DNA of 41,418 nt, from contig JBBTUK010000009.1 of NCBI GenBank assembly GCA_038063775.1, positions 21,379 to 62,796 on the forward strand. The letters are read 5' to 3'. The notes beneath the pieces were generated by a model that ran no database searches, was not told the origin of the DNA, and worked only from the letters and a program-made list of their open reading frames with translations. A program made the translations under genes and the position numbers. Origin of the DNA: Patescibacteria group bacterium (GTDB taxonomy: Bacteria > Patescibacteriota > Minisyncoccia > Moranbacterales > UBA2206). Positions 2,554 through 39,695 of the stretch are shown one piece after another; within the stretch, counting starts at the first letter, position 1, and each line of letters starts with the position of its first letter.

Positions 2554-2625
2554 CCCCGTAGTGAATTTTCGGCCGTCCCGCCGTGGCGGGACTGAAAATA
2601 TAAAAGCCGAAAATCTACTACCGGG
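2554..2625 (+). repeat. palindromic MITE-like element, subfamily B (72 bp), flanked by TTGA/TTGA
   Basis: Arms are ccccgtagtgaattttcggc ... gccgaaaatctactaccggg, with an internal GC hairpin gtcccgc-cgtg-gcgggac. The TTGA flanks are at 2550-2553 and 2626-2629. Confidence 0.85.
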
Positions 2626-3261: not shown

Positions 3262-3297
3262 CCTGCCCGCAATGCTACGCGTAGCGTTGCAGCCGGG
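3262..3297. repeat. GC-rich 36-bp palindrome
   Basis: The sequence cctgcccgcaatgctacgcgtagcgttgcagccggg has a near-perfect dyad centred on tacgcgta. It is preceded by TTGA and has no T-run. Confidence 0.6.
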
Positions 3298-3416
3298 TCA
3301 GTAAAATCAAAGATATCAGCGAATACACACGAACCAAGTGGCCATCCCTCAATCAGTGGCCTAACATAACAAAAGTACTCGATCTTAAAGAAAAGATTTT
3401 ATTCTATTTTCTTATC

Positions 3417-13572: not shown

Positions 13573-14223
13573 TTAGGTCGCTGTCAAAGTCATGTTTAAG
13601 GTGTAGCTTCCCGTGGTTTGGGCTCCCGGAATGGTTTGCGACAGGCTGGTGCCGGTCAGATCCCATTGTCCGGGCTTTGGAGCTCCGGCCGCGGCCGTCA
13701 TCAGATCAATGCTACTCACTGATCCTTCCACGAAAGCATCGCTTGTCCCCTTGGAAACATTGGTTGTAGCCGTTCCGCCGACGCCCGCGATGGTTCCCAC
13801 GCTCGGATCAATGGTCATTTGTCCGCCATAAGAATCCGTATCCACTCCATCCCCGGCGCTGGCCGTGGAATCGTTATAATCATAGTAATTTGTTCCATTG
13901 GACCAAGCGGCAGTCGCTCCGCTGGTAGCCGCGATATTGAGCGTCCAGGTATCGGTCGTCCCGCTGGGATTGGTAATGCGCATCCGTTCGCTGGAGGTGC
14001 CTAGCGTGGCCGCCGAGGCTTGATAAGTCATGGAAAAAGCCTTGGAGGGAAAAGCCACGCCAGGGCTAGTTACTGTATTTCCACTAGCGTCTACGATTTG
14101 CACATCCAGAGAGCCGGTTATGGATTGGGAAAATTCGGTCGTGTCGGAAGCTAGTGCCGCCAGAACTCCAGTCAGGACAGAAACCGCAAACACCAGCGAA
14201 ATAACAGTTATTAATTTACGCAT
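13573..14223 (-). CDS. secreted WxL-like module protein (paralog 1)
   Basis: 216 aa with a signal peptide, then GSLDVQIVDASGNTV..., TWTLNIAATSG, ...GQWDLTGTSLSQTIPGAQTTGSYTLNMTLTAT. The layout matches WxL-type surface domains: two W-x-L motifs and a C-terminal aG.Y...tlt segment. Confidence 0.65.
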   Translation of the reverse strand: MRKLITVISLVFAVSVLTGVLAALASDTTEFSQSITGSLDVQIVDASGNTVTSPGVAFPSKAFSMTYQASAATLGTSSERMRITNPSGTTDTWTLNIAATSGATAAWSNGTNYYDYNDSTASAGDGVDTDSYGGQMTIDPSVGTIAGVGGTATTNVSKGTSDAFVEGSVSSIDLMTAAAGAPKPGQWDLTGTSLSQTIPGAQTTGSYTLNMTLTAT

Positions 14224-14258
14224 GTTTGTTTTGTAATAATTAAATCGCCTGATTTTGC

Positions 14259-14930
14259 TTATGAAATAGACAGGACCATAGTTATGGAATAGCTGCCGGC
14301 CGCCTGGGAAGCAGGCAGTTTTTGGGTAATGTTGTCAGCCGCGCCGATGAAATCCCAGCGGCAGGTAGTGGCCGCGCCGGCCGCCGCCGACATGATGTCA
14401 ATGCTATTAGTCGTGCCTTCCACGAAAGAATCGCTAGTTCCCAAGGAAACATTGGTTGTAGCGCATCCGGAAACTCCGGTTATGGAACCCGTACTCGGAT
14501 TGACCGTCATCTGCCCGCCGTAAGAATCAGTGTCCGCTCCGTCCGTGTATCCCGAACCGTCATTGAAATCGTAATAAGCCGTCCCGGTTGTCCACGTGGC
14601 GGTTGTGGCGCTGGCGGCTAAATTAGCCGTCCAGATTGCTGTCGTTGTCGGATTGGAAGCCCGGACTCTTTCGGCCGAAGTGCCGAACTGCCCGGTGGCG
14701 TCCTGGGTGCTAAAACTGAAGGTTTTCGCTCCCAGGGAAATAGCCGGACTGGCTACTGTGGTGCCCGCCGCGTCCACGACATCAACGCTCAAAGAACCGG
14801 CGTTGATCGTCTGATTAAAAGTGGATGAGTTGCTGGCGAAGACTTGTATTCCGACCAAGAATACGAAGATCAGTGCCAGAACAAGCGATTTTTGGCCTAT
14901 TTTAGCCATTTTTCTGATTTTTGTTTTCAT
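14259..14930 (-). CDS. secreted WxL-like module protein (paralog 2)
   Basis: 223 aa: AGSLSVDVVDAAGTTV..., IWTANLAAS, ...CRWDFIGAADNITQKLPASQAAGSYSITMVLSIS. It aligns end to end with 13573-14223. Confidence 0.65.
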   Translation of the reverse strand: MKTKIRKMAKIGQKSLVLALIFVFLVGIQVFASNSSTFNQTINAGSLSVDVVDAAGTTVASPAISLGAKTFSFSTQDATGQFGTSAERVRASNPTTTAIWTANLAASATTATWTTGTAYYDFNDGSGYTDGADTDSYGGQMTVNPSTGSITGVSGCATTNVSLGTSDSFVEGTTNSIDIMSAAAGAATTCRWDFIGAADNITQKLPASQAAGSYSITMVLSIS

Positions 14931-15004
14931 ATTTTTGATGTAATTATTTAAAATTTGCTTTAAACAAAGCTTTTTTCGCTTTTAAGCCACTTCTTAGCTT
15001 TAGC

Positions 15005-15037
15005 AAAACAAAAAATGAATCCTCACCCCGAGAATTC
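15005..15037 (-). terminator. terminator-like hairpin inside the 5' leader of the WxL-like operon (candidate attenuator)
   Basis: The minus strand reads gaattctc-ggggt-gaggattc (8-bp stem) followed by attttttgtttt. It lies about 60 nt downstream of the predicted TSS and about 75 nt upstream of the 14930 ATG. Confidence 0.5.
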
Positions 15038-15102
15038 ACCCTAGATAGCCCCTTTATTGTCGTCTATGTCGTTTTATCCCCTTTTTAAGCTATTGTAATA
15101 CC

Positions 15103-15131
15103 ATTATACACGATATCAAGGATTGTGTCAA
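15103..15131 (-). promoter_or_regulatory. consensus sigma70 promoter TTGACA-N17-TATAAT
   Basis: The minus strand reads TTGACAcaatccttgatatcgtgTATAAT. The TTGA of the -35 box is the left flank repeat of the GIY-YIG element. Confidence 0.7.
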
Positions 15132-15417
15132 CCCCGCACTAACTTTCGTTCAAAGACTTTTTGATTCTTCTTCTTAATTGCGCCCAGGCTTGTCCAAATT
15201 GCTTTATTTGCTTTTCTCTTTCTTTTGCGTCCCACTCGGATAAATACGCTTCATAATACATGAGTTTCCAGATGTGTCCTTTTGTAGAAAAAGAATTTCC
15301 CTCATTGTGGTCAAAAAGTCTTTTCCGCAAGTTACTACTATATCCATAGTATAGCTCCTTGCGCTCATTTCTCAGGACATAAAAATAATGCATACAATAA
15401 CGAAAGTTAGTGCGGGG
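15132..15417 (-). mobile_element. 286-bp element with perfect 19-bp terminal inverted repeats carrying a GIY-YIG ORF, flanked by TCAA/TCAA
   Basis: The inverted repeat ccccgcactaactttcgtt (15132-15150) pairs with aacgaaagttagtgcgggg (15399-15417). The TCAA flanks are at 15128-15131 and 15418-15421. The ORF fills 255 of the 286 bp. Confidence 0.75.
15139..15393 (-). CDS. GIY-YIG nuclease family protein (single catalytic domain, COG2827/UPF0213-like)
   Basis: 84 aa: MHYFYVLRNERKELYYGYSSNLRKRLFDHNEG...YYEAYLSEWDAKEREKQIK, matching the GIY...YIG...R...H/N...E pattern. The stop and last four codons lie inside the inverted repeat. Confidence 0.85.
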   Translation of the reverse strand: MHYFYVLRNERKELYYGYSSNLRKRLFDHNEGNSFSTKGHIWKLMYYEAYLSEWDAKEREKQIKQFGQAWAQLRRRIKKSLNES

Positions 15418-17793
15418 TCAAGTGGCCGTTAGCGTCATACCAATGGAATAGCTGTCCGCTTGTTGCTGGGCCGGTATATCCTGGGTCAGCGCCACGCCCG
15501 TAAAGTCCCAGTAACAGCCAAAGGAGGTGGTGGACGTTAGAAGAGTTACACTGTTGCCCGCGTCAAAATAGGCAGCTGATCCTTTGGATGGTGAGACGGC
15601 GCCGCAACCCCCCTCCGGCGTTATTGTTCCCGCGCTGGGATCCACCCTTAGCCGGCCGTTAGCCGCCGTGTCATTGAAATCATAATTATAGGTTGCGCCT
15701 TGCCAAAGAGTCGAGGCGCCGCCGGTCGCTGCAATCGTAAGGTTCCAGTTTCCATTAGCTGTAGTATTGGTCAATCGAATTTTCTGGCTGGCCACGCCGA
15801 GCGTTCCAGCGGAGGTCTGTCCCACCCAGTCGAACGTTTCGGCGGAAAAAGAAACGGACGGACTGCCCACCGGTGTACCGCCCGAATCCACGATGTCCAC
15901 TGACAGCGTACCCGCAGAAAGCGTGATGGTCCCGGAAGAATAATCATTCACTTGGGAATTCACTCCGTCACTGACCAAGCCGTAGACATAATAGCTGCCC
16001 GCCGACATGCCGGCCGTATCCCAGGAACAAGTCGCTCCCGTGCCTTCGCCCGCCGAGGCGCAAGCACCCGTAATGGCCGTACCGTCCAGACCCGAACCAT
16101 TGGAATCCCAATAAAAGACCGCGTTAACGATGTTGTCAGAATCAGCCAAATCATAAGTGATGTTATACAGAGTGCCGATGGGCACGCTGTCACTCACCCC
16201 ATCCGGCTGGCTGACGGTGAGCGTCGGCCGGGCGTTGATGGTCACCACTCCCGGTGAATAGTCGCTGACTTCAGTGTTGACCGTGTCATTGACATCCCGG
16301 CCGTAAATATAATAAGTGCCGGGCGAGACGCCGGTCGTGTTCCAGGCGCAAGTGCCGCCCGAGGCTTCGCCCTGGTTCTGGCAGGCGGCAATGGAAGTGC
16401 CGTTGAGCCCCGTACCATCCGTGTCGTAATAGAAATCCACGGTAACCGTGCTGTCGGTGTCGGCCAGATTGTAAGTTATGTAATTATAAGTGCCGTCCTG
16501 GGCGATGGTATCACCGGTGCCGTCAGGCTGAGTGACAGTTAAAGTCGGCGCGTCGTTGATCCGGATCCGGCCGGTTGAAACATCAACGACATCCGGATTC
16601 ACTCCGTCATTGGCCACGCCATAAATATAGTAATACGTACTGAGACTCATGCCCTCGCCAAGAGGGCTGAAGGAACATGTTGCGTTGGTTCCCTCAATTT
16701 GGTTTTGACAGCTTGAGATGGCCGTGCCCCCGGCTCCGTTGCCGTCCGTTTCATAGTAAAAATCGGCGGTAGCGGTTCCCGCGTCGGCCAAGTCATATTG
16801 GATCTGGTAATTGCCTCCGTCCGCTACGTCCGTGTCCGAGGCTGGATTATCCACCGTGACGGTCGGCGGAGTATCTGCATAAGGTCTTAAAGCCAAGGTG
16901 ACCGCCGTCCACGAATCGCTTGTGGTGGTCGTGCCCCCACCGGCAAATGCCGCCGGATCATAGGCGCCGGAAGACCAGGTCGTATACCCGGCTCCGACCA
17001 TGCCGTCTTGGGTGTCATTCCCATTTGCCGCGCGGAAATCAGTGAGATATGACGCGGTGTAATTGCCGCCCGTTGAGCCGGATCCGGCGCCGGCTACATA
17101 AATCCACGCTCCGGAGGAAGTGGGCGTAATCGCCCCCGGATTTACAACCCGAGTATTTATCGCTCCGGCAGTGACTGCCGCGACATCAAGGGGCGTGCCT
17201 GCATCAACATTCCGGAACACATGAACAGACCAGGCGCGGCCGCCAGACGCGTCGCCGCCCGCGAGAATCACCGAGGTTTCCGGCGTCCCCGGCATAAACC
17301 GATACGCCACTCGGAGATTTGAGTCGTAAGAGTCGTTCTGATACAGCTCCGACCCGGCCAGTGTGTAGGCCGTTCCCCCACTATTATTGATCGTCAGCGC
17401 CTTGTTGGCTGTGTCCCCATTGGAAAACGCGACAATGACCAGATCGTCGGCCGCTGGCGTTGAAGCACTGCCGTTGGTGAGCGAAAAATTAACCGTCGTG
17501 TTGCCGCTAACACCGGCAGAGCTGCCCACCTGGCCTCCCACATAGGATACTGCCGCCAGAGCGGTGTGAATCCTTAACTTTTCCGGCAAATCCCGGATAG
17601 ACGCGTATTTATCCACGATGTCCGAACCGCTATCTTTTTGCGTAAGCCAAATTCTGTCCACGATTCCCCGGGTGCTGATGTAGGAATCTACCAGGGTCTT
17701 TACGAGATAAAAAGAGGCGTTGGAAAAAACCAGTCCTGTAATTACCAGAAATACTACCAGGAATCTGAATATTTTTCCGCTTCGTTTGCCCAT
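15418..17793 (-). CDS. large membrane-anchored surface protein: N-terminal TM, unknown ~280-aa domain, 3 tandem ~105-aa repeats, C-terminal WxL-like module
   Basis: 791 aa. The C-terminal 164 aa (GTLSVDIVDSGGTPV...NWNLTIAAT...CYWDFTGVALTQDIPAQQQADSYSIGMTLTAT) are paralogous to the two small proteins downstream. The TGA stop lies within the TCAA flank of the GIY-YIG element. Confidence 0.8.
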   Translation of the reverse strand: MGKRSGKIFRFLVVFLVITGLVFSNASFYLVKTLVDSYISTRGIVDRIWLTQKDSGSDIVDKYASIRDLPEKLRIHTALAAVSYVGGQVGSSAGVSGNTTVNFSLTNGSASTPAADDLVIVAFSNGDTANKALTINNSGGTAYTLAGSELYQNDSYDSNLRVAYRFMPGTPETSVILAGGDASGGRAWSVHVFRNVDAGTPLDVAAVTAGAINTRVVNPGAITPTSSGAWIYVAGAGSGSTGGNYTASYLTDFRAANGNDTQDGMVGAGYTTWSSGAYDPAAFAGGGTTTTSDSWTAVTLALRPYADTPPTVTVDNPASDTDVADGGNYQIQYDLADAGTATADFYYETDGNGAGGTAISSCQNQIEGTNATCSFSPLGEGMSLSTYYYIYGVANDGVNPDVVDVSTGRIRINDAPTLTVTQPDGTGDTIAQDGTYNYITYNLADTDSTVTVDFYYDTDGTGLNGTSIAACQNQGEASGGTCAWNTTGVSPGTYYIYGRDVNDTVNTEVSDYSPGVVTINARPTLTVSQPDGVSDSVPIGTLYNITYDLADSDNIVNAVFYWDSNGSGLDGTAITGACASAGEGTGATCSWDTAGMSAGSYYVYGLVSDGVNSQVNDYSSGTITLSAGTLSVDIVDSGGTPVGSPSVSFSAETFDWVGQTSAGTLGVASQKIRLTNTTANGNWNLTIAATGGASTLWQGATYNYDFNDTAANGRLRVDPSAGTITPEGGCGAVSPSKGSAAYFDAGNSVTLLTSTTSFGCYWDFTGVALTQDIPAQQQADSYSIGMTLTAT
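15913..16869 (-). repeat. three in-frame tandem ~315-bp coding repeats (aa ~309-627)
   Basis: The repeat units are PTLTV(T/S)QPDG...Y(N/D)LAD.D....V.FY(Y/W)D..G.G..GT.I..C......G..C.W.T.G...G.YY.YG...D.VN, each with two conserved Cys. Confidence 0.8.
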
Positions 17794-22553: not shown

Positions 22554-22579
22554 TGATTGAATTTAAGATTTAAACTTGA

Positions 22580-22652
22580 CCCCGTAGTAGATTTTCGGCT
22601 TTTATTTTTTTCAGCCCCGCCGCGGCGGGGCGACCGAAAATTCACTACGGGG
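22580..22652 (-). repeat. palindromic MITE-like element, subfamily B (73 bp), flanked by TTGA/TTGA
   Basis: Arms are ccccgtagtagattttcggc ... accgaaaattcactacgggg, with an internal hairpin gccccgc-cgcg-gcggggc. It is approximately the reverse complement of 2554-2625. Confidence 0.85.
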
Positions 22653-22681
22653 TTGACTTCCGCTAAATAGTCTGCTAAACT
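22653..22681 (+). promoter_or_regulatory. candidate promoter TTGACT-N17-TAAACT
   Basis: The -35 box begins with the right-hand TTGA flank of the element. It points into the structured region 22688-22830. Confidence 0.55.
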
Positions 22682-24845: not shown

Positions 24846-24851
24846 CTTATT

Positions 24852-24887
24852 CTATCCACTTTCTTTTCTGTAAAAGAAAGTGGATAG
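24852..24887. repeat. perfect 16-bp-stem hairpin just after efp
   Basis: ctatccactttctttt-ctgt-aaaagaaagtggatag. The half-site aaagaaagtggata recurs as a direct repeat at 25133-25146. Confidence 0.7.
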
Positions 24888-24917
24888 AAAGAAACTGCCG
24901 CACCGGCTCGTGCTTGT

Positions 24918-25043
24918 GGCAAATTCTTTCCGCGGACTCGCTAAAATCACTAAAACGACGTCGCTCCGGAAAGGGGATGAGTGATTTTTGCGCTCGTCCG
25001 CTGGAATTTGCCTACGCACATTCGCTATGTGCGGGTTTTTTTA
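24918..25043 (+). ncRNA. unclassified rod-like structured RNA candidate with an intrinsic terminator
   Basis: A nested helix of about 95 nt: ggcaaattc/gaatttgcc (24918-26 with 25004-12), gcggac/gtccgc, aaaatcact/agtgatttt, and an apical ctcc-ggaaa-gggg. It is followed by the terminator cgcacat-tcgct-atgtgcg + T7 (25015-25043). Confidence 0.45.
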
Positions 25044-25161
25044 TTTAAACCAACATACCGTTTCAGCCTTGCAAAATGCGATGCTGAAAATTCAAGCGAG
25101 TGAGCGTTAAAAAAGATAAAACCTTTGTTGTCAAAGAAAGTGGATAAAATATTACAAACTT

Positions 25162-25183: not shown

Positions 25184-25200
25184 AAGAAGATTTGTATTTA

Positions 25201-25304
25201 CCCCTACACCAACTTTTACAAAACAAGATAGAAGGTAGGAATTTTATAAAGAGATTTGTTCGCTTTATGATTTGCGGATTGCGTTGTAAAAGTTGGTGTG
25301 GGGG
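25201..25304. repeat. palindromic MITE-like element, subfamily C (104 bp), flanked by TTTA/TTTA
   Basis: Arms cccctacaccaacttttacaa ... ttgtaaaagttggtgtggggg match at 20 of 21 positions. The TTTA flanks are at 25197-25200 and 25305-25308. The arm resembles the GIY-YIG element inverted repeat (CCCC.CAC.AACTTT). Confidence 0.75.
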
Positions 25305-25311
25305 TTTAGTT

Positions 25312-25540: not shown

Positions 25541-25569
25541 ATTATACACTATTTTCACCCTCAAGTCAA
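25541..25569 (-). promoter_or_regulatory. near-consensus promoter TTGACT-N17-TATAAT
   Basis: The minus strand reads TTGACTtgagggtgaaaatagtgTATAAT. The TTGA of the -35 box is the flank repeat of element 25570-25704. Confidence 0.65.
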
Positions 25570-25704
25570 CCCCGTAGTAGATTTTCGGCTCTTGCAAAGA
25601 TGTTAAGCTGCAGCTGACAGATATACTGCAAGGTAAAATATTTTATAATTTTTGTGGTATTTTTTAAGTCCCACTGGCGGGACGGCCGAAAATTCACTAC
25701 GGGG
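25570..25704 (-). repeat. palindromic MITE-like element, subfamily B long form (135 bp), flanked by TCAA/TCAA
   Basis: Arms are ccccgtagtagattttcggc ... ggccgaaaattcactacgggg, with an internal hairpin gtccc...gggac next to the GTGA arm. The right flank lies 2 nt from the recA stop. Confidence 0.8.
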
Positions 25705-25710
25705 TCAAGT

Positions 25711-38803: not shown

Positions 38804-39547
38804 CTAATCCATTTTATTCCAGTCAAAGTTCCAGGGGTCGTCCTTTCTTCCAGGAGCTATTTGGCTATGGCCTAGAACATATTTTATTTTATATCGCCCT
38901 TTTATATATTTTAGCAGATTATTGAGAGAATCATATTGTTTATCGGTAAAATTGCCATCCTTGGTGTTCATGAGCTCAATACCGATAGAAGTCTCATTAA
39001 CATTGGTCCGGCCGTCCGGCAAACTACTCACTCCAGCATGATATGCAATGTTTTTTTCCTCGACCAGACGATAGATCGTTCCGCCCCGGTCAACAAGATA
39101 GTGGGCAGAAACTCCATAGCTTTCATATTCCTTGATAAGCCCCTTGACGCTGAAAGGGTCGGCTCCCAAAGCGTCATAGGATGAATGGATAATTATAGTG
39201 TCAATGGTCCGACCGGCAGATTTTTCAAATCCGCTGGATAGAAGCTTGTCAACAATCGCGAATTTTGGGGACGAATTATTAGTGTTTTTCGGCGGTTCGG
39301 TCAGTACTGGTTCTTTTTTAATTTCGCCCTCCGTTTTTTCCGGAATTTTTTCCGGTTCGGGAATAATTTCTGCATTCTCGCTTTCCGGCTGGCTGTTTGA
39401 TAAAATATCGTCTGTTTGATAATTATTTTCCAGTATTATTTCTTTCTTGCTCGTGGCGGAAAATAACGGCAGCCAAAAAACGCCGGTTATGATAACCAGT
39501 AGCGCCATTGCTATTGCTATTGTTTTATAGTTCAGATATTTTTTCAT
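38804..39547 (-). CDS. N-acetylmuramoyl-L-alanine amidase (Amidase_2/PGRP family), membrane-anchored
   Basis: IDTIIIHSSYD...AHYLVDRGGTIYRLV...AYHAG...IGIELMN...GHSQIAPGRKDDPWNFDW. I set the start at ATG 39547 (MKKYLNYKT) because the ORF-track start at 39592 lies inside the repeat 39549-39691. Confidence 0.85.
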   Translation of the reverse strand: MKKYLNYKTIAIAMALLVIITGVFWLPLFSATSKKEIILENNYQTDDILSNSQPESENAEIIPEPEKIPEKTEGEIKKEPVLTEPPKNTNNSSPKFAIVDKLLSSGFEKSAGRTIDTIIIHSSYDALGADPFSVKGLIKEYESYGVSAHYLVDRGGTIYRLVEEKNIAYHAGVSSLPDGRTNVNETSIGIELMNTKDGNFTDKQYDSLNNLLKYIKGRYKIKYVLGHSQIAPGRKDDPWNFDWNKMD

Positions 39548-39548
39548 T

Positions 39549-39691
39549 CCCGGTAGTAGAATTTTGGCGTTTACACATGCTAGATTGACCAAAATTCCAT
39601 GAAATTAAAAATTTAAATTAGTTTACCGATTATACATGTCATATTTTTAAAGTTTTTTTCCAAAAAACTTAGCCGAAATTTCACTACTGGG
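39549..39691 (-). repeat. palindromic MITE-like element, subfamily A long form (143 bp), flanked by CATT/CATT (AATG on the gene strand)
   Basis: Arms are cccggtagtagaattttggc ... gccgaaatttcactactggg, with an internal hairpin aagtttttt-gg-aaaaaaactt next to the GTGA arm. It lies between the traX-like stop (TAG, then 1 nt) and the amidase ATG. Confidence 0.8.
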
Positions 39692-39695
39692 CATT

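Follow-up and report, generated by a model that had tools for sequence, protein, structure and literature searches.

In the repetitive extragenic palindrome systems associated with RAYT genes (REP/RAYT or REPIN-RAYT), one small gene lies between palindrome-forming repeats, many further copies lack an open reading frame (ORF), and the arms vary between lineages but match within a genome; the RAYT is a Y1 HUH transposase, and REP/RAYT and IS200/IS605 elements make no target duplications. Bacterial MITEs (miniature transposable elements with inverted repeats), such as the Correia elements, combine terminal inverted repeats and a short duplication with size classes of ~70 and 135 nt, an intergenic location, and interaction with promoters, and elements of the IS1380 (ISfinder) and piggyBac families typically end in CC...GG and make 4–5-bp duplications. 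The GIY-YIG catalytic domain is known from selfish elements through homing endonucleases such as I-TevI and the Seg proteins, which have 200–250 aa with linker and DNA-binding domains, recognize 30–40 bp, spread by homologous repair, and come with neither repeats nor duplications. In 23S rRNA, intervening sequences (IVSs) are excised by RNase III, and ORF-bearing versions in Leptospira and Coxiella code for a four-helix-bundle protein (PF05635, ‘23S rRNA IVS protein’). Here we report that a 294-base unit at positions 15,128–15,421 of a 41,418-nucleotide stretch (hereinafter the window) from a Moranbacterales genome of the Patescibacteria (GenBank assembly GCA_038063775.1, contig JBBTUK010000009.1) is one copy of a family of miniature mobile elements with a GIY-YIG nuclease as its sole gene. 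Our reading, held with slightly more belief than doubt, is that the unit is a miniature transposable cassette with its own GIY-YIG mobility enzyme, whose arms form a ~20-bp RNA stem that can be trimmed by RNase III. Its inverted-repeat ends and target duplication are of a known kind; its gene and its target are unprecedented.

The locus relates to each of these systems in a different way. A preliminary description, made from the letters of the window, had likened it to REP/RAYT, and the parallel holds for the layout but breaks down at the target duplications, because REP/RAYT makes none, whereas here a GIY-YIG gene goes with an exact 4-bp duplication. Unlike in the Correia-type MITEs, no DDE parent was found at the 75 metagenome and 80 genome loci, the sole protein within these ends is the GIY-YIG one, and the target is the –35 hexamer, which is regenerated; the CCCC..GGGG ends and 4-nt flanks recall the MITEs of IS1380/piggyBac type. 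The catalytic domain is shared with I-TevI and Seg, but here in an 84-aa, repeat-bounded form. Relatives of the cassette resemble the 23S IVSs in their helix-extending end stem, the classical helix-25 site, the scattered occurrence across phyla, and, in some cases, an ORF in the loop (in part after PMC11270868), but they code for a GIY-YIG nuclease and are also found at non-rRNA sites with 4-bp duplications, the window copy being intergenic. GIY-YIG ORFs belonging to this protein family, from hosts of this kind, are on record in non-intron insertions of rRNA genes of the Candidate Phyla Radiation (CPR; Brown et al., 2015, cited in Tsurumaki et al., 2024, PMC11270868), and many relatives of the cassette likewise lie in 23S/16S helices and not in introns, whereas the window copy lies outside any RNA gene. 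In the passages of the latter paper on these insertions the term ‘inverted repeat’ does not appear, and target duplications, copies in intergenic, promoter, or tRNA positions, and ORF-less derivatives are not discussed. Our literature search, whose coverage was incomplete, found no paper linking GIY-YIG or UPF0213/YhbQ to inverted-repeat cassettes, target duplications, MITEs, or promoter targeting; the family is widespread and, as far as the literature could show, undescribed.

The inverted repeat that bounds the unit is perfect over 20 nt (ACCCCGCACTAACTTTCGTT at 15,131–15,150 with its complement at 15,399–15,418; inter-arm spacing 248 nt according to the repeat finder). The preliminary description gave a perfect repeat of 19 bp (15,132–15,150 and 15,399–15,417), a version that omits an ambiguous A/T also belonging to the flank repeat; its perfection stands and its length needs this small correction. 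With three mismatches allowed, the arm sequence occurs at two sites in the window only, where 0.02 are expected, and the arms, with CCCC...GGGG ends, carry the conserved core in the form CC..GCAC. As first described, they enclose only an 84-aa GIY-YIG ORF (15,139–15,393, minus strand), which is the sole substantial ORF between them and is confirmed by Pfam; its ATG lies 5 nt from the 5′ arm (spacer 15,394–15,398), and the 3′ arm holds its TAG stop (15,141–15,139) together with the last three codons (N-E-S), not four as had been counted. The bracketing TCAA copies (15,128–15,131 and 15,418–15,421) also have the roles initially ascribed to them on the gene strand: the TGA stop (15,420–15,418) of the 791-aa ORF lies within the upstream TTGA, and the downstream TTGA begins a TTGACA-17-TATAAT promoter (15,131–15,103, minus strand) that agrees with the consensus at 12 of 12 positions. 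This arrangement had been read as a clean insertion that separated a stop codon from a promoter with which it had originally overlapped.

The predicted overlap exists. Through homologs of the downstream 223-aa protein we reached two related contigs (L166 and L167; numbers prefixed with L denote loci throughout) that are empty at this place. L167 reads ...GCCACTTGACA..., with one TTGA in which the stop codon overlaps the –35 box; in full, it is ...ATGACGCTCACGGCCAC-TTGA-CAAAATACCCGCCAGCGTG-TATAAT, with the codons ...ACG GCC ACT TGA CA.. and the promoter TTGACA-17-TATAAT. Its junction GCCAC-TTGA-CAAAAT thus corresponds to GCCAC-TTGA-(CCCCGCAC...GTGCGGGG, 286 nt)-TTGA-CACAATCC in the window. L166, in which the downstream region is ~97% identical to the window, has TTGACA-17-TATAAT with nothing before it, which makes it another empty site. 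When the 223-aa neighbor was looked up exactly, the window's own contig was the sole match, and a metagenome scan for the exact predicted empty-site 22-mer gave no match. The cassette was inserted into ACTTGACA, the overlap of the stop of the 791-aa gene with the –35 box of the next gene, and duplicated TTGA; both the stop codon and the promoter survive because of that duplication. The only alternative to insertion would be that the relatives lost the unit by precise excision, which is mobility too, so that mobility with a 4-bp target duplication is directly observed at this locus. These empty sites also rule out an ordinary host gene in its place. The corresponding explanation, in which a resident gene is flanked by a regulatory or terminator hairpin and the TCAA match is due to chance, could draw on the single-copy state of the cassette in the population, its co-orientation with the neighboring genes, and a 23-bp stem directly after the upstream gene that could act on RNA; set against the empty relatives, the same arms in unrelated contexts, and the statistical recurrence of the flank repeat, it commands almost no credence from us.

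The same cassette is found at many unrelated places in many phyla. Close homologs of the 84-aa protein number 44, nearly all of 83–87 aa, from Moranbacteria and other Patescibacteria, and a profile scan with one genome per species gave 497 relatives, of which 80 loci were kept. The preliminary description had proposed looking for further repeat-flanked copies: a bracketing repeat (score at least 14) is present at 68 of 83 homologous loci and at none of 325 equal-sized control windows from the same loci. The same arms surround homologs in settings as different as a TGT/MgsA-like ATPase pair (L006), a P-type ATPase and MerR (L009), and RecQ and MraZ (L169); the gene is thus not a conserved syntenic one, since the same arms flank homologs between unrelated genes and relatives are empty. 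The pairing of GIY-YIG gene and arms recurs in Patescibacteria, Omnitrophota, Desulfobacterota, Cloacimonadota, and Gammaproteobacteria, with the cultured Halomonas ventosae, Methylotuvimicrobium sp. KM1, Deferribacter thermophilus, and Lacimicrobium alkaliphilum among the carriers, and some genomes have two or three copies (L013/L014, L015/L018, L006/L052). The arms vary by lineage (CCCCGCACTAAC.., CCCAGCACT.., CCGAGCACTCAAC.., CCCCTCAC..) with their complementarity kept: across 17 aligned elements, 10 of the 20 arm pairs show compensatory double changes and almost none is broken. A core CC..NCAC is present in 48 of 62 distinct arms, against a background of 1.7%. A scan of viral contigs for the GIY arm gave one match, which was uninformative.

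Some further observations concern the layout of these loci. Many matches lie at contig ends (L010, L011, L012, L014, L020, L045), and in Lacimicrobium alkaliphilum the element is an entire 290-nt contig (L082, contig51); contig-end matches are how a multi-copy repeat shows itself in an assembly. In Methylotuvimicrobium sp. KM1 (L084, 2,848–3,369; 23S helix-25 region), the GIY-YIG ORF is enclosed by a pair of complete short palindromes that share their arms (2,848–2,947 and 3,269–3,369), which may be a REP-RAYT-like layout or equally a doubly nested stem. A distant GIY-YIG lineage (~45% identity) between tRNA genes is without a bracketing repeat (L112, 2,952–3,164; L136, 9,293–9,493; L153, 4,888–5,094; L155, 3,255–3,455; L165, 7,923–8,198) and shows, immediately ahead of the ATG, no more than a small hairpin; small GIY-YIG genes in these genomes are therefore not always repeat-bounded.

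The encoded protein matches the Pfam GIY-YIG family (PF01541) over residues 1–65 (E-value 1e-11; 45.4 bits against a cut-off of 22.6), and among 25 homologs Y15, G17, R25, H29, and E48 are invariant and Y5 nearly so. Its AlphaFold model (pLDDT 90.8) is that of a single domain with one C-terminal helix and no extra DNA-binding module. A profile search against the PDB recovered the UPF0213 structures 1zg2 (E-value 1.7e-10) and 1ywl (4.9e-8), and Foldseek ranked 1zg2 and 1ywl first, followed by Slx1 (6seh), with weak E-values (3e-3 to 6e-2) and TM-scores of ~0.5. Sequence and model together place the nuclease in the UPF0213/Slx1-like branch of the GIY-YIG superfamily, with the UPF0213 proteins (BH0048, 1zg2; EF2693, 1ywl; Escherichia coli YhbQ) and Slx1 as its closest relatives in sequence and fold. 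Slx1 cuts branched and hairpin DNA, has a RING/PHD domain, and needs its partner Slx4; such cleavage would suit arms that form a hairpin or cruciform. The dN/dS of the gene is 0.06–0.14, so purifying selection on the ORF within the element is strong, and because the arms are identical at 19–20 of 20 positions between copies whose synonymous sites are saturated (dS > 1), protein and arms are both under selection. The element protein has no matches in PADLOC, PHROGs, or NCBIfam, and a defense or phage gene is accordingly not indicated; Pfam searches of the element gave GIY-YIG only, with no Y1 HUH transposase (PF01797) and no enzyme of the DDE, serine, or tyrosine class. The left TTGA and arm were also considered as a promoter of the nuclease (TTGACC-16-TATTGT, 9 of 12 positions), but the –10-like stretch is poorly kept in alignment A2, for which reason this was not accepted as a general feature.

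Beyond the window, the insertions show a target preference. Flank repeats of at least 4 nt occur at 20 of the 68 GIY loci, compared with ~2% of permuted pairs. TTGA stands on both sides at nine GIY loci as well as in the window, usually followed by C and by a –10-like hexamer at 16–18 nt, and at these TTGA-flanked loci the ORF always points toward the promoter. At five other loci (L011, L012, L015, L119, L169) the duplicated TGTG is followed by NATAAC, giving TGTGNATAA, which we take to be the complement of the DnaA-box consensus TTATNCACA. At a third kind of site (L054, L067, L077, L079) a tRNA begins 3–5 nt inside the right arm and a 4–11-nt copy of its start lies on the left flank; with part of the tRNA 5′ end so repeated, the start of the tRNA is regenerated on insertion. 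At these four loci, and also at L051 and L074, the right arm ends in a GGGG that coincides with the first bases of the tRNA (Ala or Ser). Insertion exactly at a –35 hexamer or DnaA box with the motif regenerated is an unusual ‘safe-harbor’ strategy for genomes in which spare intergenic DNA is very scarce. The idea that the flank repeat is wobble pairing that extends an RNA stem (UUGA/UUGA, UGUG/UGUG) was ruled out, since flanks such as TTTA, CATT, TATA, CATA, and TGAA cannot pair.

Other copies lie within structural RNA genes. In two Saccharibacteria-type genomes the cassette is inside the RNase P RNA gene (L085, 2,966–3,579; L086, 969–1,300), with the right arm running straight into the conserved AGGAAAGTCC / AGGAAAGTCCGGGC, where Rfam detects RNaseP_bact_a (206 bits); the arms there occupy the position of the P3 stem. 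The cassette lies in the 23S helix-25 region at thirteen loci (L029, L034, L036, L042–L045, L048, L058, L062, L064, L084, L087) and near 23S nt 1850 in E. coli numbering at three (L037, L040, L088), helix numbers being those that we take to apply by comparison with the E. coli sequence; some others seem to lie in 16S. In one Desulfobacula genome the three 23S copies are all identically occupied, and each rRNA site is filled in some genomes and empty in others. These fixed sites bear on the explanation that the unit is a free-standing homing-endonuclease gene copied by homologous repair, whose repeats act as an RNA stem only and whose flank repeats are by-products of microhomology repair. It would account for GIY-YIG being the classical homing-endonuclease family, for the many copies at fixed sites that lack a flank duplication (23S helix 25, 23S near nt 1850, 16S, and the RNase P P3 loop), for the identical occupancy in Desulfobacula, for the slight sense-strand excess of G.U pairs, and for the GIY-YIG ORFs in non-intron CPR rRNA insertions (PMC11270868, in the passages on them). 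As an account of the family it nevertheless seems to us quite improbable: the protein has 84 aa in one domain with no extra DNA-binding module, intergenic copies at many sites that share only 4–6 nt have exact 4-bp duplications, no Rfam intron was found in 15,050–15,500 at E-values up to 1, and the ORF-less miniatures, alike in ends and duplications, are scattered in either orientation, a pattern that homing does not produce. Spread of the homing type may still apply to the rRNA copies.

ORF-less miniatures of the same architecture and target preference accompany the cassette. The window contains five (Table 1), and the arm core CACCAACTTTT of one of them (25,201–25,304) is that of the GIY cassette at L030; the 143-nt element at 39,549–39,691, between a TraX-like gene and an amidase gene, was absent from the list in the preliminary description. 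A metagenome scan for the commonest short-element arm, CCCCGTAGTRRATTTTCGG, yielded 75 loci with 87 paired elements, 57 of them distinct by their flanks, in two main size classes of 58–74 and 130–143 nt. The 4-nt flanks are identical in 45 of the 57 (TTGA 30, TATA 4, CATA 4, AAAA 2, and one each of TGTA, TGTG, CAAA, and CATT). Among the 30 TTGA copies, 27 are on TTGAC and 12 have at least five of the six TATAAT bases at 16–18 nt, a match seen at 2.9% of TTGA sites overall in these contigs; 14 of the TTGA copies face one way and 16 the other. A 38-nt mini-palindrome with GIY-type arms, together with one TTTA, distinguishes groundwater contigs that are otherwise near-identical: it is present in L102/L145 and absent from L105, L157, L151, and L117. 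Rfam has no family for the cassette (15,050–15,500, introns included) or for the short elements at the gathering score or at E-values up to 1. In nearly every short element arm positions 10–11 are non-Watson-Crick (one A.C, one G.T; 56 of 57 at position 10), and a small GC-rich hairpin beside the GTGAA arm varies in sequence with its pairing kept (57 short elements, L091–L165, and the window); both look like recognition features. Tandem and nested arrays of miniatures with two arm families (L102, 1,560–2,400; L105, 900–1,060; L104, 43–247) differ in copy number between near-identical contigs and look like local hot spots.

The preliminary description had proposed the cassette as the autonomous partner of the palindromic elements. 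In other genomes this finds support: ORF-less elements with the arms of the local GIY cassette lie within a few kb of it at L018, L061, L068, L036, and L062. The L018 miniature has arms identical over the 16-nt search window (ACCCCGCACTAACTTT) and the following CG, with a TGAA duplication; at L068 the duplication is TTTA for cassette and miniature alike; the L036 miniature is in a second 23S helix and that of L062 in 16S. Arms that differ between genomes and match within a genome are the pattern expected of an autonomous/non-autonomous pair, and these observations support a cassette–miniature pairing in general. In the window itself the match is weaker, and the partnership no more than plausible. 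Three to four CCCCGTAG-type elements share with the GIY cassette their termini (CCCC/GGGG), the TTGA duplication, and the –35 target, and the likeness of the arms, earlier put at about 13 of 18 positions, comes to 12 of 20 without a gap and 14 of 21 with one gap. The arms at 25,201–25,304, previously judged closer, share CAC.AACTTT with the GIY arms and are GIY-type arms of another subfamily. Among the 75 short-element loci, tblastn found only the distant repeat-less GIY-YIG paralogs beside tRNA genes, no arm pairs 0.7–3 kb apart that might mark a longer autonomous element were present, and CCCCGTAG arms bounded no other protein-coding unit.

The short elements also bear on the explanation that the unit is a mobile repeat with a GIY-YIG passenger (or one with a role in repair, addiction, or RNA processing), cassette and miniatures alike being moved in trans by a conventional transposase, for example a DDE enzyme of the IS1380/piggyBac type. 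The CCCC...GGGG termini and the 4-bp duplications (occasionally 5–7) of T..A-type tetranucleotides (TTGA, TTTA, TATA, TGTA, TGAA) fit known DDE families, the short elements far outnumber the GIY cassettes and have different arms in the window, and a GIY-YIG enzyme is without precedent as a transposase. We regard trans-mobilization as the main rival, a serious but unlikely possibility: no transposase-sized arm-bounded unit was found in ~0.47 Mb of exact-arm contigs (75 metagenome loci) or at the 80 genome loci, the pairing of the GIY-YIG gene with CC..NCAC-core arms across five phyla or classes is hard to explain with the transposases of different hosts, and selection on the ORF within the element is strongly purifying.

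In the reading that we favor, of a cassette moved by its own nuclease, the GIY-YIG enzyme would recognize the arms or their hairpin or cruciform form, which is consistent with its Slx1-like affinities, and would cut T-rich tetranucleotides with a 4-nt stagger and a preference for TTGA before a C; ligation and gap repair by the host would complete the integration and create the duplication. The arms may pair in the transcript as a ~20-bp stem, so that the insert is a closed hairpin extension, which RNase III could trim by analogy with the classical IVSs. Being closed in this way, the insert would be tolerated in rRNA helices, in the RNase P P3 loop, before tRNAs, and between a gene and the promoter of the next, and trimming could release an mRNA for the nuclease, which has no Shine-Dalgarno sequence, from read-through transcripts. 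The minimum-energy fold of the element has –90.9 kcal/mol (z –6.5) and includes a conserved inner stem, whose pairs fall at 113–121/279–287 of alignment A2, two of them co-varying.

Several points weigh against this picture. The GIY cassette is single-copy in the source population, where every contig with the identical protein represents the same locus. We know of no bacterial transposon that uses a GIY-YIG enzyme, or of a GIY-YIG precedent as a transposase, and found no counter-example in the literature on GIY-YIG; nor, to our knowledge, do the UPF0213 proteins have a role in mobile elements. GIY-YIG enzymes are hydrolytic nucleases without known strand-transfer activity, and the characterized homing and restriction enzymes among them leave 3′ overhangs of 1–2 nt rather than staggers of 4 nt. 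No flank duplication accompanies the rRNA and RNase P copies, so at least two modes of spread may exist. In the window the short-element arms differ from the GIY arms at ~40% of positions, and no GIY-YIG ORF bounded by CCCCGTAG-type arms was found among the 75 metagenome loci with CCCCGTAGTRRATTTTCGG. Finally, the non-Watson-Crick arm pairs on the sense strand, 20 G.U against 8 A.C, give only a small excess in favor of an RNA stem.

The fullest version of the reading is that an 84-aa GIY-YIG nuclease and two 20-bp inverted repeats constitute a self-mobilizing transposon of a new enzymatic class of prokaryotic element, which targets short protein-binding motifs (–35 TTGAC and DnaA boxes, TGTG|NATAA) and the hairpin tips of structural RNAs and is the source of CPR MITE-like repeats and of one class of rRNA IVSs; as a whole we hold this to be possible, with doubt somewhat outweighing belief. 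There is a substantial chance that the family is a new class of transposon. If the nuclease does move the element, it would be the smallest autonomous transposon known and the first in bacteria to be moved by a GIY-YIG enzyme, which would form a further class next to the DDE, HUH, serine, and tyrosine transposases. Even if the nuclease did not drive the movement, the family would offer one explanation for the GIY-YIG ORFs of CPR rRNA genes, for ORF-bearing and ORF-less rRNA IVSs, and for small palindromic repeats of reduced genomes. Because several carriers are cultured, the biochemistry is directly testable.

Table 1. Positions of the cassette parts, the adjoining promoter, and the ORF-less elements in the window
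Feature	Position	Strand	Basis or flanks
Upstream target-duplication copy, TTGA on the gene strand	15,418–15,421	–	Single TTGA in empty site L167
5′ terminal inverted repeat, CCCCGCACTAACTTTCGTT (gene strand)	15,399–15,417	–	Identical arms in L009, L011, and L169, in other contexts
GIY-YIG gene, 84 aa, UPF0213/Slx1-like branch	15,139–15,393	–	Pfam match, conserved residues, fold
Inner stem, 5′ strand, AAAGACTTTTTGA (gene strand), codons K-R-L-F-D, within the ORF	15,311–15,323	–	Alignment and fold
Inner stem, 3′ strand, TCAAAAAGTCTTT (gene strand), codons I-K-K-S-L	15,152–15,164	–	Alignment and fold
3′ terminal inverted repeat with N-E-S codons and TAG stop	15,132–15,150	–	Sequence reading, repeat finder
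Downstream target-duplication copy, TTGA, first four bases of the –35 hexamer	15,128–15,131	–	12/12 promoter; empty-site comparison
Host promoter of the 223-aa gene, TTGACA-17-TATAAT (preceded by TG); insertion target, intact after insertion	15,103–15,131	–	Also insert-free in L166 and L167
ORF-less 72-nt palindromic element, arms CCCCGTAGTGAATTTTCGG	2,554–2,625	+	TTGA at 2,550–2,553 and 2,626–2,629; right flank TTGACC-17-TAAGCT
ORF-less 73-nt element between ychF and rpsF	22,580–22,652	+	TTGA at 22,576–22,579 and 22,653–22,656; right flank TTGACT-17-TAAACT
ORF-less 104-nt element, GIY-type arms CCCCTACACCAACTTTTAC	25,201–25,304	+	TTTA at 25,197–25,200 and 25,305–25,308
ORF-less 135-nt element just past the recA stop	25,570–25,704	–	TTGA (TCAA on + at 25,566–25,569 and 25,705–25,708), then TTGACT-17-TATAAT
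ORF-less 143-nt element, arms CCCGGTAGTAGA.. / ..TTCACTACTGGG	39,549–39,691	+	CATT at 39,545–39,548 and 39,692–39,695

The genes around the cassette code for proteins of 791, 223, and 216 aa (13,573–17,793, minus strand) without a Pfam match, which have in common a C-terminal region ending in ..TLTAT or ..VLSIS; they look like a paralogous secreted or surface family, with 178 homologs in Patescibacteria. The 5′ leader that lies downstream of the consensus promoter of the 223-aa gene contains a hairpin of 14 pairs with a T-run behind it (15,012–15,042, minus strand); this hairpin is kept in L166 and L167 and may be an attenuator or leader structure. Elsewhere in the window (24,848–25,151), a perfect 18-bp palindrome, TTCTATCCACTTTCTTTT / AAAAGAAAGTGGATAGAA (24,850–24,889), and a third copy at 25,133–25,151 bracket ~266 nt. 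The arms include a DnaA-box-like GTGGATA, and the bracketed stretch, for which Rfam gave chance hairpin matches only, ends in a hairpin and T-run (~25,015–25,050) and could be an unannotated small RNA.

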